This document shows positions 2,622 through 60,099 of a stretch of DNA of 64,000 bases, piece by piece. The notes under the pieces were generated by a model. The model saw nothing but the letters and a program-made list of their open reading frames with translations, searched no databases and was not told where the DNA came from. This DNA is from an uncultured Candidatus Rokubacteria bacterium. Lineage in GTDB: Bacteria; Methylomirabilota; Methylomirabilia; Rokubacteriales; DASRDR01. The stretch spans positions 1 to 64,000 of the forward strand of contig CAVPSB010000010.1 in NCBI GenBank assembly GCA_963708025.1. The letters are read 5' to 3'. The translations under genes and the position numbers were made by a program. The stretch's first letter is position 1. Every line of letters starts with the position of its first letter.

Positions 2622-3566
2622 CCGCGAGTATCTCGGGGAGCGGGCAGCCGGCACCGGGTTCCGACCTGACACCCTGGAGAAGGTCCTCCGCCTCTTGCGG
2701 CTGCTGGACCAGGTGACCCGGCATCCGTTCCTGGGCTCGCGGCTGCTCCTGAAGGGCGGGACGGCGCTGAACCTGTTCTACGCGGCGGCGCCCCGGCTCT
2801 CGGTGGACCTCGACTTCAACTACGTCGGAGCGGTGGACCGCGCCCAGATGCTCCAAGAGCGCCCAGAGGTCGAGCGAGCGGTCAACCAGCTGGTCATGGG
2901 CGAGGGCTACCGGGTCCAGTGGGGGCGCGACGAGCATGCCGGGCGGAAACTCTACCTGACCTATGCCAGCGGGCTCGGATCCCCGGACCGGATCGAGGTC
3001 GACCTCAACTACCTCTTCCGCGTACCCCTCGTCGAGCCCGAAACGTCTACCGGCGTGGACGCCTGATCCGGACTTCCCCTGCGAGGCGCGGATCGTCAGC
3101 CGTGAAGAGGTCATGGCCGGAAAGCTCCTGGCCTTCCTCGACCGAGTCGCCGCACGGGACCTGTACGACGTCGCGGCGTTCGCCGTCGCGCCCGCCGGCA
3201 TACGACCTGTCCGTGCTCCGACGCCTCGTCGTCGCCTTGAGCGGGGTCCTGCCGAGGGCGCTGTCGGCCTACGATGCCCGACACCTCGATCGATTCACGC
3301 AGCGGAGCATGGACGAGGACCTGGCGCCGATGCTCCGCTCGGGCGAGACCCCGAGCGTCGAGGCGCTGAGGGCGCGGGCGGAAGTCCTGCTCGGCCAGGT
3401 CCTCGGGTTGTCGGCGTCCGAAGCCGAGTATGTTGACCGCATCCAGTGGGGGGAGTTCGTGCCGGAGCTGGTCGCGGCGGATCAGCCGGAGCTTCTGGCT
3501 CGACTGCGCACCCATCCGGCGCTGCTCTGGAAGGTCGAGAATGCCCGGAGGCGGCCACGGCCGTGA
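2611..3566 (+). CDS. abiEii: AbiEii/AbiGii nucleotidyltransferase toxin (frameshifted)
   Basis: LLLKGGTALNLFY...RLSVDLDF and GKLLAFLDRVAARDLYD motifs. Confidence 0.85.
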
Positions 3567-16662: not shown

Positions 16663-17070
16663 ATGCTCATCCTCGTCGGCCTCGTCTGGGGTCTATTCGT
16701 GCCGGCGACGCCTTTCCCACGGCTTGCGCTCGGCGCGCACGTGCAGTTCGTGACGAACGGCATGTTGTTCACCGTGCTCGGCGCCCTGTTGCTCGCCCTG
16801 TCGCACAGCGTCGGGCGCAGGTCGATCACGGTGATGCTTCTGTCGGCGTGGCTCACGTGGGCGATGGCGCTGTCCGAGGTCGCCAACGCGTGGTGGGGCA
16901 CGCGACAGACGTTGCCGATCATGGCCGGACAGGCGGGCGCATCCGGAGGCGCGCCGTGGCAGGAGCTGATCGTCACGGCGACCCACATGGTTGCCGGGCT
17001 GGGGCTCATCGTCGCGTGGGCGTTGCTGGTGGTGGGCTTCGCGAAGCAGTCGTCGGGTGCCCATGCGTAA
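16663..17070 (+). CDS. membrane protein, StyC-like family
   Basis: Four hydrophobic segments; PRLALGAHVQFVTNG motif; true start uncertain (an upstream in-frame ATG is followed by TAA). Confidence 0.55.
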   Translation: MLILVGLVWGLFVPATPFPRLALGAHVQFVTNGMLFTVLGALLLALSHSVGRRSITVMLLSAWLTWAMALSEVANAWWGTRQTLPIMAGQAGASGGAPWQELIVTATHMVAGLGLIVAWALLVVGFAKQSSGAHA

Positions 17071-17539
17071 ACGCCGTGTCGTGGAGCGAGACCGAGTGCG
17101 TCGCCGTTCGATTATCCAGCAGCCTTGGGACTTGACCTGAATTCGTGAAGGCAGCCGGCGATGGGTGAACGCAGCCAGACGTGCCGGGCGCCAATGAACA
17201 GGCTGATCTACAGTCTAAGGCTGTGGTTTGATCCGGAGGTTCCGCGTCCGCACGCTTCGCCCACCAACTTTCTTCACTGCCGACTTGATCCCGAGCCGTG
17301 TCAGCGTCGTGCCCCAGGCCACCTCGGACGGCGCTGCGTAGCCTTTCCGCTCAGACCATTCCCGGCAGCCCGCGAAAGCAGTGCTTGAGCGGGTCCACCA
17401 GTAAGCTCCGCTCGTCCCTCGAGGGCGGCAGGGTTGCCCGCGCCTCGAGCCAGCGCTGCCGTCACCTCGCGCGCGCTCGGTGGCGGCATGGCCTTGCGGC
17501 GTTCATCGTCAAGCCATGCCGGGACCAGCGTGGTGATCT

Positions 17540-18292
17540 TCAACAAGTCAACCGTGTCGCCGGCCCGAACTTGAGCCTCCTGTAGCGCGCGGCCGACCCG
17601 GAAAGGATCGCCTCGTCCGGCCACCGGCGGGCGGCCAGAGCGGCGATGGCAGCCCGGCAAGCCTCGTCGCCCTTGGCAGAGCCCAAGCTGTTGAGCGTGC
17701 GGAACGGCTGGCCGGGGCCCTCGACGATCGCCTGAAGTTCATCCAGCGTCCACTCGGTGAGGCGAGGCAGCGCTTCGATGCCAACCTCGAGGAGGGGCTT
17801 TCCCACCCAGAAGCACGGCCGGTCTCGAAGCAACCTCGTCGGCGGGATCACGGCGTAGCGGCCGCGGCCCTCAACGGTGAGCCGGGTGGCCTCCCATTTT
17901 CCACGGGGATCGCGCCGCCGGAACCGGCGAAGTCGAAGGTCGAACGGCGCGCGGGCGAAGATCGTCAGGCGGCCAGGCATGCGGACGGCGCAGGGTGTCG
18001 TCTCCAGCGCCGCCAAGACGTCCGGAACCAGGGCGACGTCCCTCACGACGACTGCGACCAGGTAGTGCTCGCCGTGTCGCGTGCCGAGAACGAGACCGAG
18101 CTCGGTGTCCGCGAGTTCCCGCGCGTTGACCAAGGCCTGCAGGGTTTCGGACGGCAGGCCGGCGCAATAGTGCGCCCAATCGCGGAGTGCGGGCACGACA
18201 GATCCCCGCACGAGGGGAAGGGGAACGAAACCGGCGTCGTAGTATTGCTGAGCCTCCAGGACGAACGCCCTCGGGCGACGCTGCCACGCCAC
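17540..18292 (-). CDS. bifunctional DNA primase/polymerase (Prim-Pol) N-terminal domain protein, divergent
   Basis: AQQYYDAGFVPLPL...PALRDW...LGLVLG...GRGRYAVIPPT; acidic DxD motif not evident. Confidence 0.6.
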   Translation of the reverse strand: MAWQRRPRAFVLEAQQYYDAGFVPLPLVRGSVVPALRDWAHYCAGLPSETLQALVNARELADTELGLVLGTRHGEHYLVAVVVRDVALVPDVLAALETTPCAVRMPGRLTIFARAPFDLRLRRFRRRDPRGKWEATRLTVEGRGRYAVIPPTRLLRDRPCFWVGKPLLEVGIEALPRLTEWTLDELQAIVEGPGQPFRTLNSLGSAKGDEACRAAIAALAARRWPDEAILSGSAARYRRLKFGPATRLTC

Positions 18293-46526: not shown

Positions 46527-47363
46527 TCACGACGTCGCTCCCGCGCGGCGGAGCCGGCGGGCCGCGCCTCCCCAGGCCAGCACGGTCACGCCGAACGCGC
46601 AGGCGACCGTGGCGCCGGTCGGGAGGTCGAGGGCGGCCGAGGCCACGATGCCGATGAGGCTGACCAGCGTGCCGAAGGCCCAGCCGACCCAGAGGCGGGT
46701 GCCGATCGGTCCTCCGAACGCGATCCCGGCCAGGGCCGGGACGATGAGGTACGAGAAGACGAGGAGCACGCCGGCGATGCGGACGGAACTGGTCACGACG
46801 AGGCCGAACGAGGCGTAGAAGAGGAAGTCCCAGAGGCGGACGCGCCAGCCATCACGATAGGCAGTGTCCGGATCGGTCGAGATGAGGAAGAACGGCTTCC
46901 GGCAGAGCCAGTGGAAGAGTCCGACGACCGCGTAGAGCGTCGCGACCCGCCCCACCTCGGGACCGCTGACCGCCAGCAGGCTGCCGACCAGCATCCCGCG
47001 GAGATGCTCGGCGCCATGCGGCGTCCGGTCGGCGACGAGAACGGCGGCTGCCGCCGACACCGCATAGACCACGCCGATCATCGCTTCCTGGGACACGCGA
47101 CGCTCCCGGCTGCGCGTCAGGGCGAGGACCAGCGCTCCGAGCACCGTGGCACCGAGGCCGAAGAGGTAGGACACGCCGGACTCCAGCTCGAAGCCGGCCA
47201 GGAGGGCGGCAGCCCCGCCGAGGGCGGCGATCTGAGCCAGCGCGATGTCCACGAACACGACCTCCCGGGCGATGACGTGGATGCCCAGGTAGGCGTGGAT
47301 CCCGGTGAGCACCAGGCACATGAGGAACGGCGCCCACAGGAGGGCGGTCAGCTCGCCGACCAT
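46527..47363 (-). CDS. Zn/Mn-type metal ABC transporter permease
   Basis: HAYLGIHVIAREVVFVDIALAQIAALG; GVLLVFSYLIVPA; LDLPTGA. Confidence 0.9.
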   Translation of the reverse strand: MVGELTALLWAPFLMCLVLTGIHAYLGIHVIAREVVFVDIALAQIAALGGAAALLAGFELESGVSYLFGLGATVLGALVLALTRSRERRVSQEAMIGVVYAVSAAAAVLVADRTPHGAEHLRGMLVGSLLAVSGPEVGRVATLYAVVGLFHWLCRKPFFLISTDPDTAYRDGWRVRLWDFLFYASFGLVVTSSVRIAGVLLVFSYLIVPALAGIAFGGPIGTRLWVGWAFGTLVSLIGIVASAALDLPTGATVACAFGVTVLAWGGAARRLRRAGATS

Positions 47364-47565
47364 GCCGCCAGCTACCGCCAAGCCGGGGCCAGCGTCGTCA
47401 CGCTGGAGCCGATCCACGCCCGGTCGGTGTCGGTGCCCCTCGGGGCGCCGGGGCGGTCGTGCCGGGGCGAGAGGAATCCACGCATGCAGAGCCCTCCGCA
47501 AGGGGCGGGTGAGGGGCCGTCCGGAACCGGCGGTCCCGGGCGGTGGACGTCAGCGGATCAGGGGT

Positions 47566-47856
47566 TCAGGCGGTGGGAGGGGCGCGGGAGCCGGACGGGA
47601 GCGCCGGACGGGTGGCCCGGGCAGGATTGCCGGGGGCCAGCGAGATCGGCCGCGCGTGGAGCGATACGCCTGCGTCCGGGGCGTCGATGATGATCGCCCC
47701 TGCGGGGGCCATCACCATGCGCTCGAGCGAGCACTGCTCGTTGTAGATACCGGCCGCCGCGCCCCCGTGCTCGTGGACGACGGGAAGCTCGGCCCCGACC
47801 CGCACCAGGGCCAGGACGACGACCAGCCACGGAACTACGCGAGAAGTGGATCGCAT
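47566..47856 (-). CDS. DUF2946-like leader peptide with RAPP motif
   Basis: Hydrophobic N-terminus, HEH..C, Pro/Ala spacer, C-terminal SRAPPTA. Confidence 0.75.
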   Translation of the reverse strand: MRSTSRVVPWLVVVLALVRVGAELPVVHEHGGAAAGIYNEQCSLERMVMAPAGAIIIDAPDAGVSLHARPISLAPGNPARATRPALPSGSRAPPTA

Positions 47857-47870
47857 GCGAAACGATTTGA

Positions 47871-47900
47871 AATCTACGCGCCTGCCGGGGTCGAAGTCAA
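47871..47900 (-). promoter_or_regulatory. sigma70-like promoter for leader 47856
   Basis: TTGACT-N18-TAGATT, 14 nt before the ATG. Confidence 0.55.
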
Positions 47901-47911
47901 ACAGTTTCGCG

Positions 47912-48403
47912 TTACACGAGATCCTTGCCGGTCGTCGCCATGGTGAGCCGGCCGTGCTTCACCCCGCGCGTCGCGATGAGGCGATCGGCGAGGTCGTGGA
48001 TCGTCTGGGCCCGGCCCCGGACGACCAGCACTTCCAGGCAGTGGTCATGGTCCAGGTGCACGTGGAGCGACGAGACGATCTCACTGTAGTGGTCGTGCTG
48101 GGCGGCCGTGAGCCGGCCGGGCAGAAGCCGGGCGTGGTGATCGTAGACGAGCGTGATCGTGGCGACCGTCTCGGCGTTCCCGGCCTTCCATTCGGCCTCC
48201 ACGAGCCCCTGACGCACGAGGTCGCGAATCGCCTCCGAGCGGTTCGGGTAGGCCCGGCGTGTCACCCACGCGTCCAGGCGGCCGAGGAGTCGCCGGTCCA
48301 TCGCGACGCCGAACCGACGGAGCCCGGCCCCCCCATCGTCGCGCGGCGGCGAGCGCCTCCTGGCGGGTCCGGGCCCGGCGTCGGGCGAGCGCCGGCTCTT
48401 CAC
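47912..48403 (-). CDS. nikR: nickel-responsive regulator NikR
   Basis: RFGVAM, NRSEAIRDL, YDHH, QHD, HVHLDHDHCLE. Confidence 0.95.
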   Translation of the reverse strand: MKSRRSPDAGPGPARRRSPPRDDGGAGLRRFGVAMDRRLLGRLDAWVTRRAYPNRSEAIRDLVRQGLVEAEWKAGNAETVATITLVYDHHARLLPGRLTAAQHDHYSEIVSSLHVHLDHDHCLEVLVVRGRAQTIHDLADRLIATRGVKHGRLTMATTGKDLV

Positions 48404-48434
48404 CGCGCGCGCCTTCTATCCCGGCTCCCGGGGG

Positions 48435-48899
48435 TCATGGCCGGGCGGCCTCACGGCCCAGGAAGGCGGCGTAGTCGCGCTCGTGGTTCGGCACGTAGCC
48501 CGACACCGCCCCCTCCGTGGGATGGCCCTGCTCGATCCAGCCGGGGATTCCCTCGTCCAGGATCCGGAGGTTCCGGTACCCCTTCGCGTAGAGCGCCTCG
48601 TAGGCCAGACTGGCCAACCGGTGGGGGCACGCTCAGTAGAGGACGACCGGGACGTTGCGCGGCAGGATCACGTCGCGCTCCCTGATCGTGGAGAGCGGGA
48701 ACGACTCCGCCCCCTTGATGTGCCGCGCCCGGTACTCCTCGCGCGTTCGCACGTCGACGAGCACGACCGGCGCTCCCCGGGCCTGGAGGCGGATCACCTC
48801 GGCTACCTTGATGAAGGTGCGGGTGTCCGACTGGCCCTGCGCCGTTCCGGCCGCGAGCCCCAGCGTGGCGACCAGGAGCGGGATCAGCCTCGTGCGCAT
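48435..48899 (-). CDS. exported rhodanese-like selenoprotein (Sec at codon 89, UGA 48633-48635)
   Basis: Signal peptide, VDVRTREEY..HIKGA, VVLY-UGA-ACP, continues in frame to LDEGIPGW; SECIS-like hairpin follows the UGA. Confidence 0.85.
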
Positions 48900-49027
48900 C
48901 GAGTTCCTCCTCGTTTCAGTTGGTAACCTCCCGCCCCCCCCCAGCCCCCCTCCCCCACCCGTTGGACGGCCTTCGGCCTGTGGCGGGGGGAGGGGGGAGC
49001 CGGAGGACCCCATTCCTTCACACGCTC

Positions 49028-49984
49028 TCAGTGGCGGTGGCTGGTGGGCGCACCGCCCCACTCGAAGGACGCCTGCCGGGACCGGGCGAATCGCCCCGCC
49101 ACCGCCGGCATGAGGCGCATCGTGGGCGTCCCGATGGTGACCGTGACCCGCTCCGTGCCGTCGGGCAGGGTCACGTCCGCCCCGTAGTGAAAGCCCTGGT
49201 GGCCCAGCATCGGGACGAGCCGCGTCCGCTTCGGGGCCTGCTTCCCGGCGTGGATGGTGGCGGCGACCGGCAGGTAGGGGATGGGCTCGCCCGACTGGAC
49301 ATCGGCGATGAACACCATGAGGTGTCCTGGCCGCCGGGCCCCGGCGCTCTGGCCGGCGGCCCTGGGTGCGTTCGGGTGGCCGGTCGCGTCGTCGTACTCC
49401 ACCCGCACCCGGACGTCGCCGAGGACCTGCTCGCGAACCGGCGGCCCCGCGTGGTCGTGCCCCTGGCCGTCTCCCGCGCCGAGGCTCTTGAGGAACGCCA
49501 CCAGGTCGATCAGCTCGCTGACCGTCAGGCTCTCCCGGTAGTCGGGCATGATCGAGAGCCCGTCGGGCCCGGCATACCCGGGGCCTTCGAGGATGACGGC
49601 GTTGGGGTTGAGGATCGACTCCGCGAAGTATTCGGCGGGGTGATGGCCGCCCATCGCGGTCAGCTCGGGGCCCACCTCGTCCGACGGCGTCGGCGCCTCC
49701 GGGAAGCCCGCCCCCTTGACGGGGTGGCACTTGTAGCACTCGAGGTTCGCGAACACGTCACGCCCCGCCTTCGCGTCGCCCGGGGGGAACGCGAAGCGCC
49801 AGCCCGGCGGCACTCCGCCGTGGCGGTGCAGCACATCCATCCCGATCCGGGCGGGAGCCGTGGGGTGCTCGTGAGGCGGGATCCCCGGCGGGTGAGCGTG
49901 GCCCTCCGGCTGCGCGGCGGACCACCGCAGGGTGGCCACCACTACCAGCGCCAGTCCCGTGGCGGTGAGGTGCCGTGCCGTCAT
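49028..49984 (-). CDS. exported cytochrome c fused to a P19/Fe2+-transport-like domain
   Basis: His-rich N-terminus, CYKCH, SIMPDY; C-terminal HLMVFI..EPIPY...LVPMLGHQGFHYGADV. Confidence 0.75.
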   Translation of the reverse strand: MTARHLTATGLALVVVATLRWSAAQPEGHAHPPGIPPHEHPTAPARIGMDVLHRHGGVPPGWRFAFPPGDAKAGRDVFANLECYKCHPVKGAGFPEAPTPSDEVGPELTAMGGHHPAEYFAESILNPNAVILEGPGYAGPDGLSIMPDYRESLTVSELIDLVAFLKSLGAGDGQGHDHAGPPVREQVLGDVRVRVEYDDATGHPNAPRAAGQSAGARRPGHLMVFIADVQSGEPIPYLPVAATIHAGKQAPKRTRLVPMLGHQGFHYGADVTLPDGTERVTVTIGTPTMRLMPAVAGRFARSRQASFEWGGAPTSHRH

Positions 49985-50625
49985 GACGCCGTCCTCCCTG
50001 CCCGATCGGTCGTGAGTCGCGCGTTCCGCGATCGGGTGCGCCACAACAGCCACGCGGCCGCCGAGCCCAGGAGCGCCGCGCCGGCCCCCACCATCGCCGC
50101 GCCCACGCCCCAGGACGCCGCCGCCTCCACCTCCAGCGGGAAGTCGGCGCTCCCGGAGCCCTCCGGGCCCGAGACGTGGACGGTCACCGTCCAGCGCCCC
50201 GGACTCGGCAGCCTGAGATCGGCCACGTGGCTGATCCCGCCGGGATCCCGGCCCCGATCCGCCGTGACCGAGACCGGGGCGTCCGCGGCGCCGGCTCGCC
50301 CGGCGCTGACGCGCACGACCGCGTCGGGGACCGGGCGAAAGTTGCCCGGCCGCATCACGGTGACCGTGAGCTGACACGCGTCGGTCCGCGGCCGCTTGGG
50401 CTGGGTCCACGCCATGAGGACGTAGGGCCCGGCCCGGTCGTTGAGCTGGAGGACCCCGCTGTGGTCTGCCGAGGCCGGGCCGGAAGCGCCCACCAGGGCC
50501 CCGGCTGCCAGCGCGACCAGCAGGACGCCGCGTGCCAGCGCCGGGAAAGAAGTGCGGGCGCCTCCCCTTCCCATCGCGCGGCCTCCGCGGGTCGGGGGGG
50601 CTCGCGCCAGCGGGCCCGCCTTCAT
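49981..50625 (-). CDS. YtkA/FixH-like exported protein with C-terminal membrane anchor
   Basis: Signal peptide, HVADLRLPSPGRWTVTVHVSGPEG, terminal TM helix. Confidence 0.65.
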   Translation of the reverse strand: MKAGPLARAPPTRGGRAMGRGGARTSFPALARGVLLVALAAGALVGASGPASADHSGVLQLNDRAGPYVLMAWTQPKRPRTDACQLTVTVMRPGNFRPVPDAVVRVSAGRAGAADAPVSVTADRGRDPGGISHVADLRLPSPGRWTVTVHVSGPEGSGSADFPLEVEAAASWGVGAAMVGAGAALLGSAAAWLLWRTRSRNARLTTDRAGRTAS

Positions 50626-51014
50626 GACGCCGGTCGGAGCCGGAAGCCGAAGTCGCTCTCGACGACGTGGCCGTCAACGGAGAGGACGCGGAACTTGACC
50701 GTGTAAGCGCCGGGCGCCAGCGGCCGCAAGCCGACGGAGAGCCGCTTGGGATCGTCCGGCCCCACCGCGGCGTTCCCGGCGTCAACCCGCGCGCCGCCGG
50801 CGTCCCACACCGAGATGGTGGCGAACTGCGGCTCCAGCCGCTCGCTGAACCAGAGCTGGACCCGGTCGGGGGCCTTGACGAGCACCGCCCGCCGGGCGGG
50901 GATCGACTTGACGAGCATCGCGTGGGTCCAGCCCGAGACCGGAACGAGCGCCAGCGCCAGCCAGACCAGGAACCTCACCGCGACGACGAGGCGGGCAGGG
51001 AACATCCTGCTCAT
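50622..51014 (-). CDS. copC: copper resistance protein CopC
   Basis: HAMLVKSIP, LWFSERLE, FRVLSVDGH. Confidence 0.9.
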   Translation of the reverse strand: MSRMFPARLVVAVRFLVWLALALVPVSGWTHAMLVKSIPARRAVLVKAPDRVQLWFSERLEPQFATISVWDAGGARVDAGNAAVGPDDPKRLSVGLRPLAPGAYTVKFRVLSVDGHVVESDFGFRLRPAS

Positions 51015-51048
51015 CGTACGCCCATCAGCGGCCCCCGGGGGGGCCGGG

Positions 51049-52038
51049 TCACGGGCGGAGGGCCATCCCGTGCGGCGCCTTGCCGACGGCGATGCTCTTC
51101 ACCTGCTTGTGGGTGCCGAGATCGATGACGGTGACGGCGTCGGCCCACCGGTTGGTGACGAAGGCGTAGCGCCCGCTCGGCTCCATCGTCACCAGGTCGG
51201 GGTATGCCGGCTGGGGGATGCTCGCCACGACCCGGTCGTCGGCGGTGGACACCACGACGATCTTGTTGGCCCGCCGGAGCGTGGCGTAGAGGAAGCGGCC
51301 GTCCAGGGTGAGGACCGCGTCGTGGACGATCCCCGGCAGCGGGATGGTCTTCACCGCCGCGTTCGTCGTCGTGTCCACCTTGACCAGCTTCTTCTCCTCG
51401 CCGGCGGCCGCGTAGAGCCAGCGCTCGTCGGGGGTGAGGGCCAGCCCCATCGCGTCGCCCCCGGTCCAGACCGTGTGGGTGATCCGGCGCGTCGCCGTGT
51501 CGATCGCGGCGAGGTTGCCGGCCGTCTCGCCGGAGACGTAGAAGGTCCGGCCGTTCCGGGTGAAGATTCCGTGGGCCGGCCACGTGGAGACCTCGATCCG
51601 CGCGTCCACGCGCGCGGCCGCGAGGTCGTAGACGATCACCTCGTCGTTGCTGGTCTCGCTGCTCCAGTCCAGGACGTACAGGTACCGGCCGTCCGGTGAG
51701 AACGCGAGGTTGTACGGGTTGCCGCCGATCTTGACCCGCCGCGAGAGCTTCCCGGTCTCCGCGTCGACGACGCCGAGGTCGTGGCTCTTGTCGTAGACGA
51801 CCCAGGCGGTCTTGCCGTCCGGGTGGAACGCGACGCGGTTGGGCTTGCCCGGGCCGAGCGGGATCGTGTGGACCACCTCGAAGGTGGTGGTGTCGATGAC
51901 CGAGATCGACCCGGACTTGGTGTTCGTGACGTAGAGCGTGGCCGCCGGCGCCGGCCGGGGGTCGGCCAGGGCGGCCAGGCCGAGCAGCAGGGCGAGGCCT
52001 AGCCGGCCGGGGCCTCGCCAGGGACGGTGTGCATTCAT
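51049..52038 (-). CDS. YncE/YVTN beta-propeller protein
   Basis: LYVTNTKSGSISVID and repeated FSPDG..LYV blades. Confidence 0.9.
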   Translation of the reverse strand: MNAHRPWRGPGRLGLALLLGLAALADPRPAPAATLYVTNTKSGSISVIDTTTFEVVHTIPLGPGKPNRVAFHPDGKTAWVVYDKSHDLGVVDAETGKLSRRVKIGGNPYNLAFSPDGRYLYVLDWSSETSNDEVIVYDLAAARVDARIEVSTWPAHGIFTRNGRTFYVSGETAGNLAAIDTATRRITHTVWTGGDAMGLALTPDERWLYAAAGEEKKLVKVDTTTNAAVKTIPLPGIVHDAVLTLDGRFLYATLRRANKIVVVSTADDRVVASIPQPAYPDLVTMEPSGRYAFVTNRWADAVTVIDLGTHKQVKSIAVGKAPHGMALRP

Positions 52039-52047
52039 GACCCTATC

Positions 52048-52623
52048 CTACCGCCGAGCGGGCGGAAACTCCGCCTCGCTTCGTGACTCGGGGCAGCCGA
52101 AGCTCCCGACCAGGCCCTTCCGGGTGACGGCGCCGGCGAGCTTCACCGGGCTGCGGTCCTCGGCGCCCGCGACGTGCCCGGCCGGGTTGCAGCTGAAGGT
52201 CAGGTCGACCGGCACGGTGTTGACCGTGCCGTGGATGCGGAAGCTGTAGGTGGTGGCGACCGTCGGGAAGAAGAACGCCTCGTAGTGCCCCGGGGATCGG
52301 AAGGCCGGATAGAAGTCGAAGGTCCGGGCGGCCGGGCCGGCCTTGACCTCGACCTTCAGGCTCTTCTCGAGCCCCTCCACCGGCTTGATGTTCGGCGCCC
52401 GCGAGTCCATGGGGTTGGCCGGGTCGGGGACCCAGACGAAGAGGTCCACGCCGCTCTTGTCCCCGGTGAAGACCGGCTCGTTCAGGAATCCGACCACGAA
52501 GAGGTAGTCGGCCGTCCCGATCTGGAAGAGCTGGCGCTGGTGAGCGCCGGCGATCGGCGAGACGCAGAGCGACAGCACGGCGGTGAGGGTGACGAGAGCC
52601 AGCAGTCGGCGGAGAGACATCAT
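52048..52623 (-). CDS. exported hypothetical protein (N-terminal His after signal peptide)
   Basis: AGA-HQRQ, VVGFLNEP, GHYEAFFFPT. Confidence 0.7.
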   Translation of the reverse strand: MMSLRRLLALVTLTAVLSLCVSPIAGAHQRQLFQIGTADYLFVVGFLNEPVFTGDKSGVDLFVWVPDPANPMDSRAPNIKPVEGLEKSLKVEVKAGPAARTFDFYPAFRSPGHYEAFFFPTVATTYSFRIHGTVNTVPVDLTFSCNPAGHVAGAEDRSPVKLAGAVTRKGLVGSFGCPESRSEAEFPPARR

Positions 52624-54504
52624 GAGACCTCCTGTCCGGCGTTCCGGCCGGAGCCCGGGTCGAGGGGTTCGAGGACGACCGGCGCGCCGGACAGGGCGCG
52701 CCGGCTGCGGCGGAGCAGGCCCGCGGTGAGCGTGACGATGGCCACCGCGGCGATCGCCATCGGCAGGTCCAGCGGCGCCGGTGGGCCGGCCGCCAGGCTG
52801 CGGTGGTGCCCGGCCGGGACGGCGCCCGCCAGGCGAAGCGTGAAGCGGTCGTTGAGGTCATAGGCCCCGTCCCGCTGGACGACCACGCGGCCGCTCCAGG
52901 TGCCCTCCATGCCGAGGAGCGCCTCCATGGTGACGAACGAGCCGGCCGAGGCGCGGCTCAGGGTCAGGACGAGGGGGCCGCCGTGGGCGTGCGGCGGCGT
53001 GAGCTGGACCAGCGCGGCGGTGGCGTCGGCGAGCGGCCGCCCCGCGCGGTCGGTCACGGCGACCCGGATGGTGTTGCGGCCGGGACTCAGGGAGGCGACC
53101 TCCACGGAGACGCGCGCATCGTCGACCTCCCGCTCGTGACGGAAGGCGGCGACCGGCGCCGGGCCGTGGGACGGCGAGGTGGTTCCCAGGAGGGCCGCCA
53201 GCAGCAACGCCAGGACGCCCAGCCCCGCTTCCAGCCGGAGCGTCCGGCGGAACCGTCGGGCGACCCGCTCGCCGCGCGCGCTCGCGCGGCCGGCGGCCTC
53301 GACGGCGCGGGGGTGCACCCGGAACTGGTGGTAGCCACCCAGGCCCAGCATGGCGGCCATGACCAGGAGCTTCGCGAGGAGCCAGCGACCGTATGCCGTC
53401 CCGATCAGGTCACCGGCCGACGCCAGGTGGAGCCGGGCGAGATAGAGACCGCTCAGGCCGAGACTGCCGACGGCGACGGTGGCCAGGACGGAAAAGGCGG
53501 GGATCGCCTGCACCAGCGCCGCCGCCGGGGCCACAGGGCGGAAGGAGCGCCAGAACAGCGAGGCGAAGTAGGCGAGGCCGGCAACCCACAGCGCCACCCC
53601 GAGCCGGTGGAGGAGCTCGGCGCCCAGGGCCAGGCCGCGCCAGCTCGTGGCCGCCGCGCCGTGACTGAGGAGTCCACCCGCCAGGATGGCGAGCAGGACG
53701 CACCCGATGCCGACATACCGGGGCCAGCGCCGGTGCCGGGCGCCGCGGGCCTGGAAGGCGACCACCGCGGCCAGCAGGGCGGCCAAGAGGAGCTCGAGCG
53801 TGGCCAGCCGGCCCACCGCGGTGGGCAGGAGGGCGATCGCGCCGGCGAGCCAGCCGGAACCGGCGCCAACCTGACCGGCCCGGGCGCCGAACGCCGCCGC
53901 CTCGCCGGCCGCCATCGCGCCGATCGATGCCGACAGGAGCCCGGATGGGGCTTCCGCCGCCGCCGGACCGAAGACCAGGGGGCCGATGAGCGCGCCGAGC
54001 AGGGCGAGCGCCCCGAGCATGGCGACCCAGCGCCCGATGGCGACGAGGGGCGGGGTGGCCGCGGCCAGATCCCGGCCCGGTGGCGGGGCGGGAGCCACCG
54101 TGCCGACGGCGAAGCCGTGCGCTCCCTCGGTCACGTGCCCGTCGTCGGCGGACAGGACCCGCCAGGCGACGGTGTAGGGGCCGGGCTCGAGCTCCGGGAC
54201 GGCCAGGCGGTAGAGCCACGGATCAGCCGGGTCGACGCGCGGAGGACCGGTGTCGACCGGCCGCCCGCGCGTGTTGAACGACCTGCAGCGAGCTGGCGCG
54301 CGGCTCCACGCGCTCGCTGAAGCGGATGGTGATCTCCCGTGGACTCTCGCCGACGACGGCGTTGGCCTCCGGCACCATGGCGACCGGCACGGCGTGAGCA
54401 AAGGCCAGGCGGGGCGCGGCCAGGAGGAGCGCCACCGCCAGGGCTGACGTGCTCGCGCGCACGCCGGACGTGAACCGGCGACCACGAGCCACTCTGCCGC
54501 GCAC
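52620..54504 (-). CDS. CopC-CopD-YtkA fusion (YcnJ-like copper uptake protein), frameshift near 54280
   Basis: AFA-HAVPV, WRVLSADDGH, LSHGAA, LHRLGVALWVAGL, TAYGRWLLAKL; GGAGG 6 nt before GTG. Confidence 0.85.
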
Positions 54505-54629
54505 TCGACGCCTCCTTTTTCGGCCGGGGGGAGCCCGCCGAAGAGGGATCTCCGGCCATCCCGGGATCGATGACGACCCGCACCCGTCCCGGGGGAAGCC
54601 GCGGGACGACGAGCAGGCGCCGGAAGGGG

Positions 54630-55196
54630 CTAGACGGAGCGGGCGGGAGGCGCGCGTCCCTGGTCGGGACGGAGCGCCGGAGCGGCCAGGAGGGGGTCGG
54701 CGAGCATGACGAGCAACGGACCCACGTCAGCGGGCGCGTCGGCGGTGATCTCGGCGGCCGGGGCGTCGCCGTGGACGTGCTGCGCCACGGACAGCACCTG
54801 GCACTGCGCCGCGCCTCGCGGATCGTCGATGTGGTGGACGGAGTGGATCGTGCTCTCGGCGACGAACACGGTCAGCATGGGGATCAGGGCCAGCGTCACG
54901 ACCCGGGGCCACCGGCGGGCGATGGCGCCGGCGAGGGCGAGTCCGGCCACGATCGCCAGCCAGGGTGCGAGCGACGTGGAGGGGCCGGCGATCAGGACCG
55001 GTGGCTCGGATGGGCCCGAGACGATCGCCGGCGCCGGCCCCGGCTCGGGGTCGTTCACCTCGAGGGCCGGCGGCGACACCGGGGAGAGCGCGGCCCGGCG
55101 GGAATGGCCCTCCGCCGGCTGGAAGCCCACCAGCAGCACCGCCATCCCGCCGAGCAGGACGAGCCCGGTCAGACGCGAAGCGCGGAGGCCCTTCAT
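54630..55196 (-). CDS. extended DUF2946-like leader protein with RAPP motif
   Basis: Signal plus two TM segments, ESTIHSVHH...CQV...QH, C-terminal GRAPPARSV. Confidence 0.75.
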   Translation of the reverse strand: MKGLRASRLTGLVLLGGMAVLLVGFQPAEGHSRRAALSPVSPPALEVNDPEPGPAPAIVSGPSEPPVLIAGPSTSLAPWLAIVAGLALAGAIARRWPRVVTLALIPMLTVFVAESTIHSVHHIDDPRGAAQCQVLSVAQHVHGDAPAAEITADAPADVGPLLVMLADPLLAAPALRPDQGRAPPARSV

Positions 55197-55203
55197 GGCG
55201 CAG

Positions 55204-55232
55204 AGCCTAACGGTGTGGCGCCGCCTTGTCAA
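55204..55232 (-). promoter_or_regulatory. sigma70 promoter giving a probably leaderless mRNA
   Basis: TTGACA-N17-TAGGCT, 7 nt before ATG 55196; no SD. Confidence 0.7.
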
Positions 55233-55235
55233 ACT

Positions 55236-55595
55236 CTAGTCGCACTTCTTGAAGAGGACGACCCACAGCTTGACCGGCCGGTCGCCCTCGTTGCGCGCGT
55301 CGTGCGGCGTGAGGGGAGGAAGGAGCCGGGCGGCCCCGGGCCGCAGCACCTCCCGGCCGGCGTCCGTCACCAGGGTCAGCTCGCCTTCCACCACGATGCC
55401 CAGCTCGGGATCGAGTCCGGTGTGGCGGCCGGACGCCGAGCCCGGGGGGAAGGTGAAGACCGAGACCCGCACCGAGTCGTTGTCCAGGGCGAGTCGCTCC
55501 TCGATCACACCCTGGGAGTCCTGCGCTCTCGCGCCGGAAGCCAGCGTGATCAGCCCGATCAGCGCGCCGAGCACGGCGGCCCACCGGATCGTCAT
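55236..55595 (-). CDS. exported cupin domain protein
   Basis: FPPGSASGRH...ELGIVVEGEL...PHDARN. Confidence 0.85.
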   Translation of the reverse strand: MTIRWAAVLGALIGLITLASGARAQDSQGVIEERLALDNDSVRVSVFTFPPGSASGRHTGLDPELGIVVEGELTLVTDAGREVLRPGAARLLPPLTPHDARNEGDRPVKLWVVLFKKCD

Positions 55596-55975
55596 GGTGA
55601 CCTGTCCTTCCTGATGGCCGTGACGAGGAGGCGACCGTCCTGCGCCTTCAGCGTGAACCGGACGGGATCGCCGGGGGAGAGCCCTTCCAGGAGCTTCTCG
55701 CTGGCGGCGTGGAACGGCATGGTCATGCCCTCCATCAGGTCGGGGATGTCCTCGTGGGTGAGCCAGACGACGCCGGAATCGCGCTGGACGAGGCGGACGA
55801 TGCCGCGAGCCGTCCAGGCGCCGTCAGCGACGCGCGGCTGGGCGGCCTCTCGCACCGTCGCGAGCTCCTGGCGGAGCTGGCGGACCTCGCGGGCCCACCA
55901 GAGATAGCCGCCGCCCAGCCCGAGCACCAGCGCGACATCGACCAGGAGCACCACCTTCCAGAGGCGCATCGTCAT
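55592..55975 (-). CDS. CusF-like copper-binding protein, membrane anchored
   Basis: LTHEDIPDLMEGMTMPF...GDPVRFTL. Confidence 0.85.
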   Translation of the reverse strand: MTMRLWKVVLLVDVALVLGLGGGYLWWAREVRQLRQELATVREAAQPRVADGAWTARGIVRLVQRDSGVVWLTHEDIPDLMEGMTMPFHAASEKLLEGLSPGDPVRFTLKAQDGRLLVTAIRKDRSP

Positions 55976-56123
55976 TCGGGCCGGGGGGGAGCTCCGCGCT
56001 CCATCCGGATCGCCGCGGCGCCTCGGGCCTGCAGCCCTCGGGACCCCACGTCCTTCCGGTGGCCCGGACCCCCCCTCCGGGTCTTTCGTCGCTGACGCTT
56101 CCGCGGCAATGGCTTCGAGCGTC

Positions 56124-58158
56124 TCAGTGGACGTGCTCGGCGGGGGCGGGGACCCGCTCCGGCTCGCTGGCGAGCCGCTGGACCTGGGCCACGAGGCGCG
56201 CGGGATCGCTCCAGCCGTCGCCCTGGGCCGGGCTCCAGCGAGCCCGGACGTAGCCCTGGCGGTCGATCAGGAACTCCAGGTGATCCGGGGGCGCCTCTTC
56301 CGGCTCGGGACGCAGGCGCCGATAGGCCTCGGCGGCCTCGGCGGCGCCGTCCACCGCGATCGGGAAGGCAACCAGTCGATCGTCGAGCTCGCGATAGACG
56401 TTGCGCCCGGGCCGGACCGGGACGCCGAGGACCTCCGCGCCGGCGCGGAGGATCGGGCCGTAGGCCGTGTTGAGCTGGGACAGACGGGGTCCCGACCCGG
56501 GGAGCGTGAAGATCACGAGGACGACCATCCGCCGGCCGCGGTAGTCCTTCAGGTTGCGGGCCTCCCCGACTCCCCGCGTGAAGGTGAAGTCGGGACCGAC
56601 GAGCCAGGGAATGGGCGCGGTCTCCGGGCCCATCGGGCGGGCCTGCTCGGCGGCGGCGAGGATGCGGATGAGGTTGATCGCGTCCCATCGCTGATCGACG
56701 CTCAGCCGATCGGCAAATCCCCGCATGGCGGAGCCCGGGATCCCGTTCGTGAGCCACCAGAACATGTCGCCGGCGGTGTGATCGGCGGCGTGCCGGGCGG
56801 TGAGGTCGGCCGGGCGCGGGCGGAGCCCGGATGCGGCCGGGCCGTCGCCGTAGCCGTGCTCGCCGTGACACACCGCGCACTGGGCCCGGTAGACATCGCC
56901 GCCGTCGGCGATCGACCCGGCGGTGTAGGTCACGCTCGGGCGCAAGTACGTCGTGGGGTAGGCGTTCGACGGCGAGCGGCGGCAGCGCCACCATGACCCC
57001 CGCCGCGGCCACCGCCGCCCCGGCGCCGAGAACCACGGGCCACCGGCGCAACCTCAAGACGGCGGCGAGCAGCGCGGCGACGAGCCCGAGCAGCGCCACC
57101 TGGCTGCCGATCGCCACCCGGGTCTGGACTCCGGGCAGGCTGCGGGTGGCGTCCCAGGACAGCCGATAGGCGAATGGCCAGGTGATCTGATCGTGCCGGG
57201 CGGGCGTCGTCAGCCCGAGCACGGCCACGACCCCGAGGATCGCCACGCCCAGCCCCAGCTCGGCGACGACCTGGCGACGGAGCCGACCGACCACGCGAGC
57301 GGCCCGCCGACCGCCCGCGACGGCCGCCAGGAGCCGGGGCTTCAGGACGAGGTGATTGAGCGCCGCGATCGCGATCAGTGGCAGCAGCAACCCGACCTTG
57401 AGGAGCAGCCACCGGCCGTAGGCGGTGCCGACCAGGGCCGGGAGTGAGTTGACGTGCTCCCAGCTGTTGAAGAGCCCGGTGGCGACGAGCGCGAGGACGC
57501 TGGCCAGGCCGAGGCGCGAGAAGCGCCGGGTGGCGCCCGCCGCCAGGACCGTCCCCGTCGGCTCCGGCAGGCCCCGGGACCGGTGGAGCAGGACGGCCAG
57601 CGGGCCCAGCGCCCCGAGCCACACGCCGGTGGCCAGGAGGTGCACGGCGTCGACCGCGATCGCGGCACCGGGAAGCTCCTGGGCCGACGCGGCGTGGCCG
57701 GCGGCCCCGATGATCGCCAGACTGAGCGCGCTCAGCCCGCCGGCCTGGAGGCGAAGGGCGAGCCAGTCCCGCACGTCGCGCTGCTCGTCGGCCAGGAAGA
57801 GCAGCCCGCCGGCGAGGACGAGCAGGGCCTGGCGGGCCAGCCACACGGCGCCGTACTGCGTCGTCAGCAGGACCGCCCCCAGGGCCGCCGTCGTGAGGCT
57901 CGCCCTCAGGCCCGCCCCGGTGGCCACCGCGGTCTGGCGCCAGAGATCGAGCAGCGAGCAGGCGATCGTGACCGCCAGAGTCCACCGACCGAGGGCGAGG
58001 AGGCGGCGGTCCAGCCGTTCGAGCAGCGCGATCGCGTCGGCGCCGGCGGCCTTCGCCGCCGGCCGGGCCACGAGCACGAGGAACGCGAACACGCCGACGA
58101 GAAGGCTGGCGCCGAGGAACTGGGCCCAGCGAACGGCGACGGCGAACGCTTCCATCAT
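56124..58158 (-). CDS. copD: CopD - cytochrome c - redoxin-fold fusion (frameshift near 56965)
   Basis: GHAAS, VHLLATGVWLG, TAYGRWLLLK; CAVCH..GYGDGP; GPDFTF..LKDYRG...FLIDRQGYVRARW. Confidence 0.85.
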
Positions 58159-58182
58159 CTTGGCATCTGGGGCAATCTCGAG

Positions 58183-58554
58183 CTATTCGGGCGGCTTCAG
58201 CGTGAACCGGTAGTCACCCTGCGTGCGGTGACCGTCCACGGCGAGCACGCTCCAGGTGACCGTGTAGACGCCAGCGGTGAGGGGCGGCAGCCCGACCTGC
58301 AGTAGCCGCCGGTTCCGGGGGTCCACGTGCGAGTCGCCGCGGTCGATCCGCCGGCCGGCGCCGTCGGTCACCGTCACGGCGCTGAAGGTCGGCTCGAGAT
58401 CCCCATCGAACCAGATGCGGACCTCGGTCGGCGCCGTCCGCACGACGGCGCCGACGCGGGGATCCGAACGCTCCGGAAAGGCATGCGCCCCGACTCCGGT
58501 CACGGTGATCATCAGCAACAGCTCGATGATACTCGTGGCGGTGACGAGGCGCAT
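58183..58554 (-). CDS. copC: copper resistance protein CopC
   Basis: GA-HAFPERSDP, IWFDGDLEP, WSVLAVDGH. Confidence 0.9.
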   Translation of the reverse strand: MRLVTATSIIELLLMITVTGVGAHAFPERSDPRVGAVVRTAPTEVRIWFDGDLEPTFSAVTVTDGAGRRIDRGDSHVDPRNRRLLQVGLPPLTAGVYTVTWSVLAVDGHRTQGDYRFTLKPPE

Positions 58555-58563
58555 CCGGAGCTC

Positions 58564-59439
58564 CTACCGGAAGATCGGCCGGAAGACCGTCGGGAACAGG
58601 TCGTCGAGGAAGACGTGGAACAGGGCTCGGACGCCGACGTTCTTGCCGGTCTCACTGTTGATCGGGATCACGGCCTCGATTCCTACCTCGATGTACTTGC
58701 CGGCCCAGATGAGTCCCGGGTTCACGGTCCCGGTCGTCTTGCCGCCGTCGAGCGGGGTGGAGAAGAGCAGCTCGACGATCGGGAAGATCCGGCCCACGGC
58801 GGGCGGGATGCCGACGTCCTTCACGAACTGCTGGAGATACGGGAGGCTGTACTCGATCGCCACGCCGTAGGTGAGCGAGTTGCCCTCCGCGCTCGTGAGC
58901 GGGATCTCGGCGCCGAACACCCCGGTGATGGCCAGCGGCCGGAGGTAGGCCAGGGCGTCGGGCAGGTCGCCCAGGCCCTTGCCGAAGAAGAGGGCGGGCG
59001 AGATGGTGGAGAAGGACTCCGCCCCGCCCGACTTCTGGCCGGCGCCGCCGATCTCCCACGAGAAGCCGAGCGACAGGATGGTCTCGTGAGCGTCGCTCTT
59101 GAAGAAGACGTACTTCGCCGACAGCTCGGGGTTGCCGAACCCGTCGCTGCTCCGCTCCTCCGGATCGCTCGGGTCGAGGAAGCTGTACTCGGCCTCGATC
59201 GACAGCCCGAAGCTCGGGGTGATCGACTTGGAGAACTCGGCGCCGAGGGTCGTCTGCTTGCCCTCCGGACCCTTGATGTGCAGAACGGATGGCAGCGACA
59301 GCTCGTCGGCGACGAACGGATCGTCGATGGTGAGGGTGGCGGGGAAGAAGCGCTGCCCCGCGACGCCGTGGGCCCACGCCGGCCCCGCCGGCGCGGCGAT
59401 GAGCAGAATGGTCCCCAGGACGCACCAGACCCTTCGCAT
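58564..59439 (-). CDS. putative outer-membrane beta-barrel associated with cop genes
   Basis: AWA-HGVAGQRFFPATLTIDDP; alternating beta-strand pattern; precedes copC-copD. Confidence 0.65.
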   Translation of the reverse strand: MRRVWCVLGTILLIAAPAGPAWAHGVAGQRFFPATLTIDDPFVADELSLPSVLHIKGPEGKQTTLGAEFSKSITPSFGLSIEAEYSFLDPSDPEERSSDGFGNPELSAKYVFFKSDAHETILSLGFSWEIGGAGQKSGGAESFSTISPALFFGKGLGDLPDALAYLRPLAITGVFGAEIPLTSAEGNSLTYGVAIEYSLPYLQQFVKDVGIPPAVGRIFPIVELLFSTPLDGGKTTGTVNPGLIWAGKYIEVGIEAVIPINSETGKNVGVRALFHVFLDDLFPTVFRPIFR

Positions 59440-59514
59440 GCGTCACCTCGCTGAGCCGGCGCGCTCCGTCGCGCGGACGGACGCCGGCCGCCCGGACGTT
59501 GCCCGTCTCGAACC

Positions 59515-59826
59515 CTAGAGCCAGGCGAGGGACGCCGTCGGTGGGCCGCGGCTGGCCGGGCGCCGGGCAGGCGCGAGCGCGGGACGCGAGGCGGGAGCCG
59601 GGTCCGTCCGGCCGGACGTGGACAGCGCGACCACGAAGAGCGCGAGCGGGGCGGTCGCCGCCGGTGTGTGGTCGGCGATGACCAGGACCTCGCACTCCGG
59701 CTCCTGGTCGGTCTCGAAGAGGTGATGGACGAGGTGCGGGGTCGTCTCGGCGATCAGGAACAGGAGCGCGCCGCAGAGGAGCAGGCTCAGCCTGGGGCGA
59801 CATCGGTGAAGCGGCGGTGGTGGCAT
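59515..59826 (-). CDS. DUF2946-like leader peptide with RGPP motif
   Basis: Hydrophobic segment, ETTPHLVHH...CEV...DH, C-terminal SRGPPTASLAWL. Confidence 0.75.
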   Translation of the reverse strand: MPPPPLHRCRPRLSLLLCGALLFLIAETTPHLVHHLFETDQEPECEVLVIADHTPAATAPLALFVVALSTSGRTDPAPASRPALAPARRPASRGPPTASLAWL

Positions 59827-60099
59827 GGACCCATCCAGGGCGGCTCCATTCTGCCACAGCGGGTCCGGGGGGGCCGGCCTTTCCTCAGGCTCGACGGTTC
59901 CGGAGCGTCGTCCTCGTCCGCCGGCTCGTCGTCGGCCGGGGCAAAGAACGCCCGGCCGGCCATGGCCACGAGCACGAGGACGACGAGCCCGAAGAGCCAC
60001 CACGCGAGGCCGAGTCCCTCCGTCGCCGCCCGCGTGGTGCGCGCGGGCGGGCGTGGCCACGGCCAGGAGGAGGAGCAGGATGGGAACGGTGAGGCTCAT
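59787..60099 (-). CDS. small exported/membrane protein (frameshift near 60012)
   Basis: MSLTVPILLLLLAVATPARA-HHAGG then WWLFGLVVLVLVAMAG. Confidence 0.45.

Follow-up and report, generated by a model that had tools for sequence, protein, structure and literature searches.

The DNA analysed here, referred to as the window, is a stretch of 64,000 nucleotides (nt) from an uncultured Candidatus Rokubacteria bacterium (assembly GCA_963708025.1, contig CAVPSB010000010.1, positions 1 to 64,000). It holds three small minus-strand open reading frames, ORF1, ORF2 and ORF3, each of which combines a hydrophobic segment, a His/Cys motif, a spacer and a terminal RGPP or RAPP and is followed by a block of metal-handling genes. 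An initial annotation, made from the letters alone, had read them as ribosome-arrest leaders that sense metal. Translation of the window returned the three ORFs at the positions and with the motifs it had given, and the downstream genes found by Pfam and NCBIfam searches agreed with those it had named. The block behind ORF1 has the gene of a probable outer-membrane barrel, copC, a gene that fuses CopD, cytochrome c and AhpC, cusF and a cupin gene. Behind ORF2 stand a copC-copD fusion gene, a gene for an exported protein without a name, one for a beta-propeller, copC, genes for a cytochrome c protein and a rhodanese, and nikR; behind ORF3, a 37-codon ORF, an ABC-3 permease gene and a rhodanese gene.

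ORF1 (59515..59826, minus strand; 103 amino acids, aa) has one hydrophobic helix at about residues 11-29, H31, H34 and H35 in an HxxHH arrangement (residues 31-35), C45, H53, a spacer, RGPP at 93-96 (codons 59550-59539, minus strand) and a 7-residue tail, with 48 residues from the Cys to the Arg. Its frame stays open back to 60156; the start at 59826 is where the alignment begins in 7 of 9 close homologs, the other two reaching a few residues further. ORF2 (54630..55196, minus strand; 188 aa) is a longer form with a signal peptide, H31 directly past the predicted cleavage site, a Pro-rich linker and a two-helix membrane hairpin (77-93 and 97-121), followed by H118, H121 and H122 as HxxHH (118-122), C132, H140, a spacer, RAPP at 181-184 (codons 54656-54645, minus strand) and a 4-residue tail; here the Cys to Arg distance is 49. 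ORF3 (47566..47856, minus strand; 96 aa) carries a hydrophobic helix, H28 and H30 as HxH (28-30), Y38, C42, L44, a spacer, RAPP at 91-94 (codons 47586-47575, minus strand) and a 2-residue tail. All three were read as coding sequence because the GC fraction at codon position 3 is 0.85-0.92, compared with 0.55-0.59 at position 2 (window GC 69%).

AlphaFold modelling of ORF1 on 12 sequences was of low confidence (pLDDT 58). In the ORF2 model (pLDDT 73, pTM 0.42), usable for secondary structure only, the predicted signal helix is followed by a linker and then by a hairpin of two helices with a basic loop; HxxHH lies where the second helix ends, and the spacer is extended. Under the positive-inside rule basic loops face the cytoplasmic side of the membrane, so the basic hairpin loop of this model would place the His cluster outside. 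The combination of features is rare in the genome. The whole assembly (G000, 8.2 Mb) was scanned as 68,805 ORFs, taken from stop to stop and no shorter than 60 aa; R[AG]PP lies within 12 residues of the stop in 481 of them, and 10 of these 481 also have a hydrophobic 12-mer 45-120 residues before it. ORF1, ORF2 and ORF3 are three of the ten, all inside 12 kb of the 8.2 Mb.

By sequence comparison the three ORFs fall into two families, A (ORF1, the short form, and ORF2, the long form) and B (ORF3), and neither a Pfam nor an NCBIfam name was found for any of them. The motif common to ORF1 and ORF2 is HxxHH-x9-C-x2-[ALF]-x4-H. A family A profile built from 28 rows matched 1,153 clusters at E <= 0.001, and the motif was counted in the best 150 of these, a set in which profile selection favours motif-bearing homologs. 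R[AGS]PP is present in 150/150 (140 RAPP, 6 RGPP, 4 RSPP), always 47-50 residues after the Cys (mode 49), across a spacer whose sequence is unconserved; a His occurs at Cys+8 in 103/150 and CxxC in 1/150. Long forms like ORF2 account for 89 of the 150, with a His directly after a signal-peptidase-like site in 79/89, and H31 is conserved at 90% or more when 75 long forms (ORF2 and 74 of the 89) are aligned. The family B motif is HxH-x7-Y-x3-C/H-x-L, with HxH and R.PP invariant in 29 rows and the Cys replaced by His in 6 of them. Family A was found in 149 of 251 genomes of the phylum (Methylomirabilota) and family B in 64 of 121 phylum genomes at least 90% complete, in up to five copies per genome; many genomes have both. 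Elsewhere, the assembly has a fourth copy of family A (C13:273926-274231; L009:3939-4232, plus strand). Profile comparison of A with B gave a probability of 89% (E 2.6e-6). Lack of conservation among homologs had been named at the outset as a finding that would speak against arrest leaders; in the homolog alignments the His/Cys motifs, the R[AGS]PP end and the spacing are kept across large families.

The initial annotation had also pointed to DUF2946 (PF11162), the family of the copper leader CruR. By the Pfam score the three ORFs are not members: they gave no match at E 1 (and did not reach the cut-off of 23.7 bits), and the search of the genome gave none at E 10. A weak DUF2946 match was found in 5 of 28 family A rows (best E 0.011). 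The ORFs share with DUF2946-type leaders an N-terminal export signal (hydrophobic segments, and helices in the models), a terminal RAPP-type motif, a fixed spacing of the metal site and first place in a metal-homeostasis operon. CxxC and CxxxC are absent from ORF1, ORF2 and ORF3, and family B has a single Cys or a His instead. When the family A profile was compared with that of 13 CxxC leaders the probability was 6% (E 0.006), and at this probability the family A Cys aligned to the first Cys of CxxC; for family B it was 2%.

A link to these leaders came from the gene behind ORF1. Taking the 80 best loci with this barrel gene, less 3 with short upstream sequence, we sought leaders in the remaining 77 without use of a profile. 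An upstream R[AGS]PP ORF was seen in 37/77. In Methylomirabilota it was present at 15 of 15 scored loci, all of the HxxHH-Cys type, and family-A-like leaders stand at three further barrel loci labelled Binatia, Proteobacteria and Deltaproteobacteria. R[AGS]PP leaders were also found at 10 of 12 alphaproteobacterial loci (mostly CxxC), at 7 in Betaproteobacteria and at 1 in Nitrospirota, and one unclassified locus has a leader with HxxxH plus CxxC; at most Nitrospirota and all Myxococcota loci of this set no such leader was seen. DUF2946 matched 15 of the 16 proteobacterial leaders scanned (6/16 pass the cut-off), and the first Cys of CxxC lies 47-51 residues ahead of the arrest motif in 14 of 15. 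The same barrel gene and the same ruler length imply that the CxxC-less leader replaces a DUF2946-type leader there.

Verrucomicrobia barrel genes have a leader with CxxC in 11 of 14 scored loci (L049, L050, L051, L053, L060, L061, L062, L064, L065, L092, L120), with a conserved HPCxLC and a Pro-rich PPR-type end. The four of these that were scanned had no Pfam match, and by their sequences they are likely another unnamed leader family with a tail like that of the leader CutF. An Atlas search with ORF2 put unnamed clusters on top and named ones only below 0.9. One of the two named clusters nearest to its C-terminal half was DUF2607 (PF10795; 0.87, a lead only), for which the assembly gave no match at E 10 (cut-off 24 bits). 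DUF2607 is a His-rich family with a RAPP-type end.

The genes behind the leaders were tallied in 40 regions over 4.5 kb downstream, with five rows below 40 bits left out. CopC, CopD or SCO genes follow 14/21 family A leaders and 0/30 family B leaders; ZnuA, ABC-3, NicO, DUF1007 or Fur genes follow 22/30 family B leaders, namely ZnuA or ABC-3 (19), NicO/DUF1007 (2) and Fur alone (1), and 0/21 family A leaders. Six family A loci outside the tally (L016, L031, L034, L039, L041, L042) precede a barrel, copC-copD or a porin. The leaders thus keep their first place in metal-handling operons across neighbourhoods. Of the suggestion that they are tuned to different metals, a two-way split holds, with copper genes behind family A and ZnuA/ABC-3/NicO genes behind family B; a separate metal for each of the three ORFs does not. 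The nikR gene, which had been taken as a pointer to the metal, lost that role: among all loci fetched it was matched only in two that were cut from the window, and it was therefore rejected as a conserved partner. A Fur-family gene occurs in 13 locus records, several of which are overlapping copies of the same places.

Several loci in these collections carry other arrangements. At L161:1864-6958 a family A leader precedes a BBP2 porin and a PBP_like_2 (tungstate/molybdate-type, TupA-like) binding protein with its permease. The gene next to the C13:273926-274231 leader shows several apparent frameshifts and, by eye, a radical-SAM-like Cys triad, and is followed by ABC transporter genes. One subgroup of family B (L125, L127, L129, L144; e.g. 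L171:4957-10662) is accompanied by two or three SPFH/Band 7 proteins and a P-type ATPase; in another (L143, L147, L148, L149, L153; e.g. L182:1044-3724) a lipoprotein-like gene without Pfam match comes first, in some cases with DUF1007 and NicO behind it. An RGPP leader, His-rich with a single Cys and weakly family-A-like (19 bits), stands directly before zrgA in L172 (about 16800-17705, plus strand). A third class of leader, without Pfam match, has the hydrophobic segment and RAPP with an acidic Y-D-G-x-D-D in place of His/Cys (L010:2821-3105, L011 about 2470-2784 and L012:2295-2669, all plus strand; C16, C23 and C29 of the assembly). The genes that follow these leaders encode a DUF1003 protein, a protein of PAP2 type and a fusion of PfkB with HAD; similar ORFs occur in L184. 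The class possibly comprises sensors of a Mg/Ca-type or other cation on the same chassis. An ORF with a hydrophobic segment and an RGPP end lies upstream of a UPF0047 gene (L013 about 2990-3292, plus strand; G000:C16:138735-140291).

We then compared the arrest site with the ribosome-binding site (RBS) of the next gene. The RBS was picked by pattern within 200 nt (36/46 family A and 24/30 family B leaders; some picks are probably wrong), and pairing was scanned in 18-nt windows whose start is given relative to the arrest Arg codon (R). In family A the best RBS-pairing window starts between R-3 and R+21 in 22/36 leaders, with 3.8 expected by length; with swapped RBSs this same window was best in 3-11 of 33-36 loci. 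Pairing energy over the arrest window was -19.6 kcal/mol for the own RBS and -17.2 kcal/mol for swapped ones (p 0.008), and a control window gave p 0.56. When stalling was modelled, the predicted accessibility of the RBS rose by over 0.2 in 13 of 38 family A loci and fell in 1. The rare codon CCT encodes the first arrest Pro in 18/46 family A leaders, compared with 26/406 other Pro codons, and in 8/30 family B leaders, compared with 28/359.

In the window itself, an 11-nt arm in the tail codons of ORF1 (59525..59535, minus strand), 15-25 nt past the first base of the Arg codon, is the predicted partner of the barrel-gene RBS (59440..59451, minus strand) in the 75-nt intergenic region. Their duplex (-23 kcal/mol) is the best of the windows scanned and the pairing probability is 0.99. 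In ORF2 a 7-nt stretch of the Ala-Pro-Pro codons (54646..54652, minus strand) is complementary to the copC RBS at 54517-54509; the duplex of the arrest codons with this RBS has -18.8 kcal/mol, and a window at R-120 does better (-19.7). Intergenic distances behind the leaders are mostly below 130 nt. The downstream regions contain 26 C and 33 G (ORF1), 49 C and 43 G (ORF2), and 86 C and 68 G in 202 nt (ORF3).

The further genes of the three blocks given next lie on the minus strand. The gene behind ORF1 (58564..59439) encodes an exported protein of 291 aa, probably an outer-membrane beta-barrel, without Pfam match; 39% of the members of its nearest named Atlas cluster carry PF13557, a mere lead, and its closest named relatives are from Methylomirabilota/Rokubacteria (79% and 71% identity). 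It is followed by copC (58183..58554; PF04234, E 1e-22), a fusion of copD with cytochrome c and an AhpC-like domain (56124..58158, frameshifted near 56940-56966; a single gene of 683-684 aa in relatives), a gene for a cusF-like copper-binding protein (55592..55975; PF11604, E 5e-17) and one for an exported cupin (55236..55595; PF07883, E 4e-13). After ORF2 and a gap of 125 nt come a copC-copD-YtkA-like fusion (52620..54504, frameshifted near 54190-54296; a single gene of 609-668 aa in relatives), an exported protein of about 189 aa without Pfam match that is found behind copC-copD in relatives too (52051..52620), a YncE/YVTN-like beta-propeller identified by Pfam/NCBIfam (51049..52038), the second copC (50622..51014; PF04234, E 7e-23), a weakly YtkA-like protein and then a cytochrome c/iron-transport-like protein (together 49028..50625), and nikR (47912..48403; NF003381, E 1e-57), with a probable start near 48325. 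As the end of the ORF2 block and the final gene ahead of the ORF3 promoter, nikR lies upstream of ORF3. Past ORF3, at 80 nt, a 37-codon ORF with an RBS (47372..47485) takes the position of the barrel gene in relatives, and the ABC-3 (Zn/Mn/Fe-type) permease gene follows (46527..47363; PF00950, E 8e-29). The barrel and znuA genes that are usual behind family B leaders were not found anywhere in the assembly; the ORF3 operon seems to have lost them in the source genome, and the 37-codon ORF is possibly a remnant of that block.

Each leader ORF has its own promoter-like site, all on the minus strand. The scanner called three sites in all, among them the ORF3 promoter (47857..47910, -35/-10 at 47900-47871). 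An extended -10-like element about 20 nt ahead of ORF1 (59848..59857) was seen by eye, outside the three called sites. The site ahead of ORF2 (55204..55232), below the scanner threshold and also read by eye, has a perfect -35, a 17-nt spacer and a weak -10, and is a probable sigma70-type promoter; it ends 7 nt before the ATG, which implies a leaderless mRNA. In 29/46 family A and 6/30 family B leaders an in-frame start has a -10-like hexamer 5-9 nt ahead of it (background 4.7% per start codon, with several starts tried per leader), so that leaderless mRNAs look common in family A without being established. Family A starts of L028, L095, L097, L100, L101 and L106 have GAAC just ahead of a TTGA-type -35 and a GTTG-like element ahead of the -10, which suggests an alternative sigma factor or an operator.

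A 14-bp imperfect inverted repeat (47910-47897/47870-47857), directly past the nikR stop, brackets the ORF3 promoter and is a possible repressor site of NikR or Fur-family type. As a shared operator of the family it was rejected: its perfect-palindrome version had 0 matches in the genome when 1 mismatch was allowed, and with 2 allowed it matched only its own site among 76 leader upstream regions. A TGCAA-N5-TTGCA-like palindrome (at most 2 mismatches) lies upstream of 14/30 family B and 4/44 family A leaders, where 0.017 per region is expected from one strand of the assembly; the pattern was chosen after the family B upstream regions had been viewed. It matches the published Streptomyces Nur box (PMC2691836), a Fur-family gene is often near the family B leaders that have it, and it may hint at Ni or Zn for this family.

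On this evidence the members of families A and B, and with them the three ORFs, are very probably cis-acting arrest leaders, and they probably sense metal. The full scheme, in which arrest peptides link the next gene's expression to the metal available outside the cytoplasm and metal releases the stall, seems to us evenly poised. RAPP and RGPP are reported to cause a robust arrest, resistant to EF-P, and CruR arrests in vitro in a manner dependent on R139 (PMC12992588); by analogy with CruR and other such peptides, the ribosome would stall at R[AG]PP. The N-terminal helix or helices would then place the His/Cys site in the periplasm, about 48-49 residues from the stall and just past the tunnel and translocon. 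In family A the stalled ribosome would cover or melt the anti-RBS strand, and barrel, copC and copD would be translated while metal is scarce. Copper bound by HxxHH, the Cys and the later His, together with His1 in the long forms, would fold the nascent chain and pull it free, after which the hairpin would close and metal uptake would be shut. Family B, and thus ORF3, would do likewise for a Zn/Ni/Mn-type cation. Copper is described as relieving CruR stalling, perhaps through a folding force (PMC9426467), and as prolonging CutF stalling, which opens an RBS hairpin (PMC9973294, bioRxiv 10.1101/2025.02.05.636593). We favour the polarity in which metal releases the stall because the cargo is mostly import machinery. 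Homologs of CopC/CopD are said to take up or deliver copper (PMC8689200, PMC11923076, PMC8424229), and uptake is expected to be on at low metal, the polarity of CruR.

Several observations weigh against this scheme. The polarity would follow from the type of cargo only, and copC/copD, cusF and P-type ATPases could serve resistance. CutF, with a comparable RBS-hairpin output, offers an analogy of opposite polarity through its copper-induced stalling. Seven of the 21 family A leaders have no CopC, CopD or SCO within 4.5 kb and precede TonB plus a receptor (2) or a BBP2 porin (5, of which 3 had less than 2 kb of downstream sequence); the PBP_like_2 cargo at L161 is unexpected for a His/Cys sensor, and no recognised copper gene stands behind the fourth family A copy of the assembly. 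A and B are two clades, so that the cargo split amounts to one event in evolution or a few, and all p-values are inflated by the relatedness of the genomes. In family B an anti-RBS at the arrest site was not found (4/24, 2.4 expected; own versus swapped RBS p 0.94). In the models, stalling changes the unpaired fraction of the RBS only from 0.20 to 0.22 for ORF1, whose RBS is not freed because the anti-RBS arm extends past the assumed ribosome footprint, and only from 0.19 to 0.37 for ORF2. The two copD-containing genes are each frameshifted relative to intact relatives; these frameshifts in otherwise conserved genes, like those at L009:4337-5400, may be assembly indel errors.

The closest competitor keeps the same parts with the polarity of CutF: translocation would normally pull the arrest through, and metal near the translocon exit would prolong it, open the RBS and induce resistance or cuproprotein assembly. 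It draws on the RBS-masking hairpin over the stall site of family A, which is nearer to CutF and SecM than to CruR, on the short intergenic distances and on cargo with cusF, SCO and heavy-metal P-type ATPases. We consider it rather unlikely, since the leaders here carry a full R[AG]PP, for which the robust arrest described above is reported (PMC12992588), since the CutF tail alone gave no stall in a LepB fusion (PMC9973294), and since much of the cargo (TonB receptors, porins, ZnuA/ABC-3, NicO) is import machinery. The output might also be transcriptional, by Rho-dependent termination or RNA stability instead of translation initiation. CruR works in this way (PMC9426467), and the idea is most plausible for family B, which lacks the RBS-pairing signal; the region downstream of ORF3 is C-rich and that of ORF2 less so, whereas that of ORF1 is G-rich. 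The locus-specific anti-RBS pairing and the codon bias at the stall site of family A make it improbable as a replacement for translational control, and the two kinds of mechanism can coexist.

That the leaders monitor secretion, membrane insertion or redox state in the manner of SecM or ApdA, with His and Cys used for folding or thiol chemistry, is again improbable. RAPP peptides are known ahead of sec and thioredoxin/DsbA genes (PMC12992588), nearly all downstream products are exported and a lone Cys could react with oxidants or partner thiols; yet the His residues are invariant and the Cys gives way to His in family B, the motif type follows the metal cargo, and elsewhere DUF2946-like leaders stand ahead of this same barrel gene. 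Least credible, and in our view highly unlikely, is an absence of any cis-regulatory role, the ORFs being due to chance or else coding for small, stable membrane proteins that bind metal, or for chaperones. The conserved N-terminal His and membrane hairpin of the long form could act as a chaperone, and Pro/Ala/Arg-rich ends are common at high GC, as the 481 ORFs of the assembly illustrate. Against this stand the unconserved spacer of fixed length (47-50 residues) before an invariant terminal R.PP, the family A anti-RBS signal and the reported proteome-wide avoidance of RAPP/RGPP (PMC12992588).

If the leaders are metal-sensing arrest peptides, a broader reading may tentatively be put forward, though it is less probable than the scheme itself. 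In Methylomirabilota a single modular RAPP chassis of fixed length would have its ligand motif swapped (HxxHH-Cys with or without the extra N-terminal His, HxH-Tyr-Cys, HxH-Tyr-His) to set the releasing metal, so that one cell would have a copper and a zinc/nickel channel side by side, and in family A the arrest codons would double as the RBS-masking strand. If true, it would include the first arrest peptide that senses Zn or Ni, and would offer a natural series in which to study the metal-driven folding pull on a nascent chain. How a stalled ribosome senses metal has been worked out for copper only, in CruR and CutF and in opposite directions (PMC9426467, PMC9973294, bioRxiv 10.1101/2025.02.05.636593). 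Changed ligands that track the cargo make two questions, zinc/nickel sensing and the control of polarity, testable by small reporters. Widespread and without a Pfam or NCBIfam name, the two families could also become markers by which unnamed barrels downstream of them are annotated with a metal class.

Among known arrest peptides, SecM, ApdA and ApdP resemble these leaders in an R-A/G-x-P-type arrest near the C-terminus, release by pulling force and exposure of the next RBS by the stall; they differ in that they monitor Sec/YidC, precede sec genes and, as far as described, have no metal-ligand cluster at fixed distance. A catalogue of RAPP/RGPP upstream ORFs (PMC12992588) reports enrichment ahead of copC, PCu(A)C, YcnI and TonB receptors, as here, and SLIV_16130 as well as SLIV_18480, tested arrest peptides of Streptomyces lividans, have His/Cys-rich predicted metal sites. 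Its source data include one family A member, MBI1893022.1, as an unannotated row and may list others.

CutF of Rhodobacter capsulatus shares with our leaders the Sec-targeted nascent sensor, a stem-loop that masks the next RBS and a similar distance of about 45 residues from metal site to stall motif, and differs by its CxxxC, its Pro-rich tail and its copper-induced stalling (PMC9973294, bioRxiv 10.1101/2025.02.05.636593). The cargo is barrel/CopC/CopD or ZnuA/ABC-3 here and CutO or HupE for CutF-type leaders. The published CutF-like survey took proteins of less than 150 aa with a predicted signal peptide, by which most long forms would drop out, and its clusters 14 and 17 are His-only and adjoin HupE/UreJ Ni/Co genes (PMC9973294). 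Families A and B may overlap with these clusters, which we compared by description. Sensing without CxxC, proposed in the initial annotation as a variant, is therefore less new than it appeared.

CruR (Bp2923) of Bordetella pertussis is likewise a small exported ORF at the head of a metal-import operon with a terminal RAPP (PMC9426467), and in Proteobacteria the barrel gene known here from behind ORF1 has DUF2946-type leaders ahead of it. Its C90-to-R139 distance of 49, conserved and probed by mutation (PMC9426467), falls within the 47-50 of family A. CruR dispenses with its own signal peptide and acts by Rho termination over 162 nt (PMC9426467), whereas the output of family A appears to be an RBS hairpin across short gaps; and in place of CxxC our leaders have a His cluster with one Cys or His. 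In the literature and supplements covered, including part of the PMC12992588 source data, we did not find families A and B, their cargo split, the long form with N-terminal His or the anti-RBS over arrest codons described. Judged by their sequences, what is new beside the principle published for CruR and CutF is a pair of families that are neither DUF2946 by score nor CxxC-bearing, and that keep the arrest motif and the ruler length while changing the ligands, the ligand type following the cargo.

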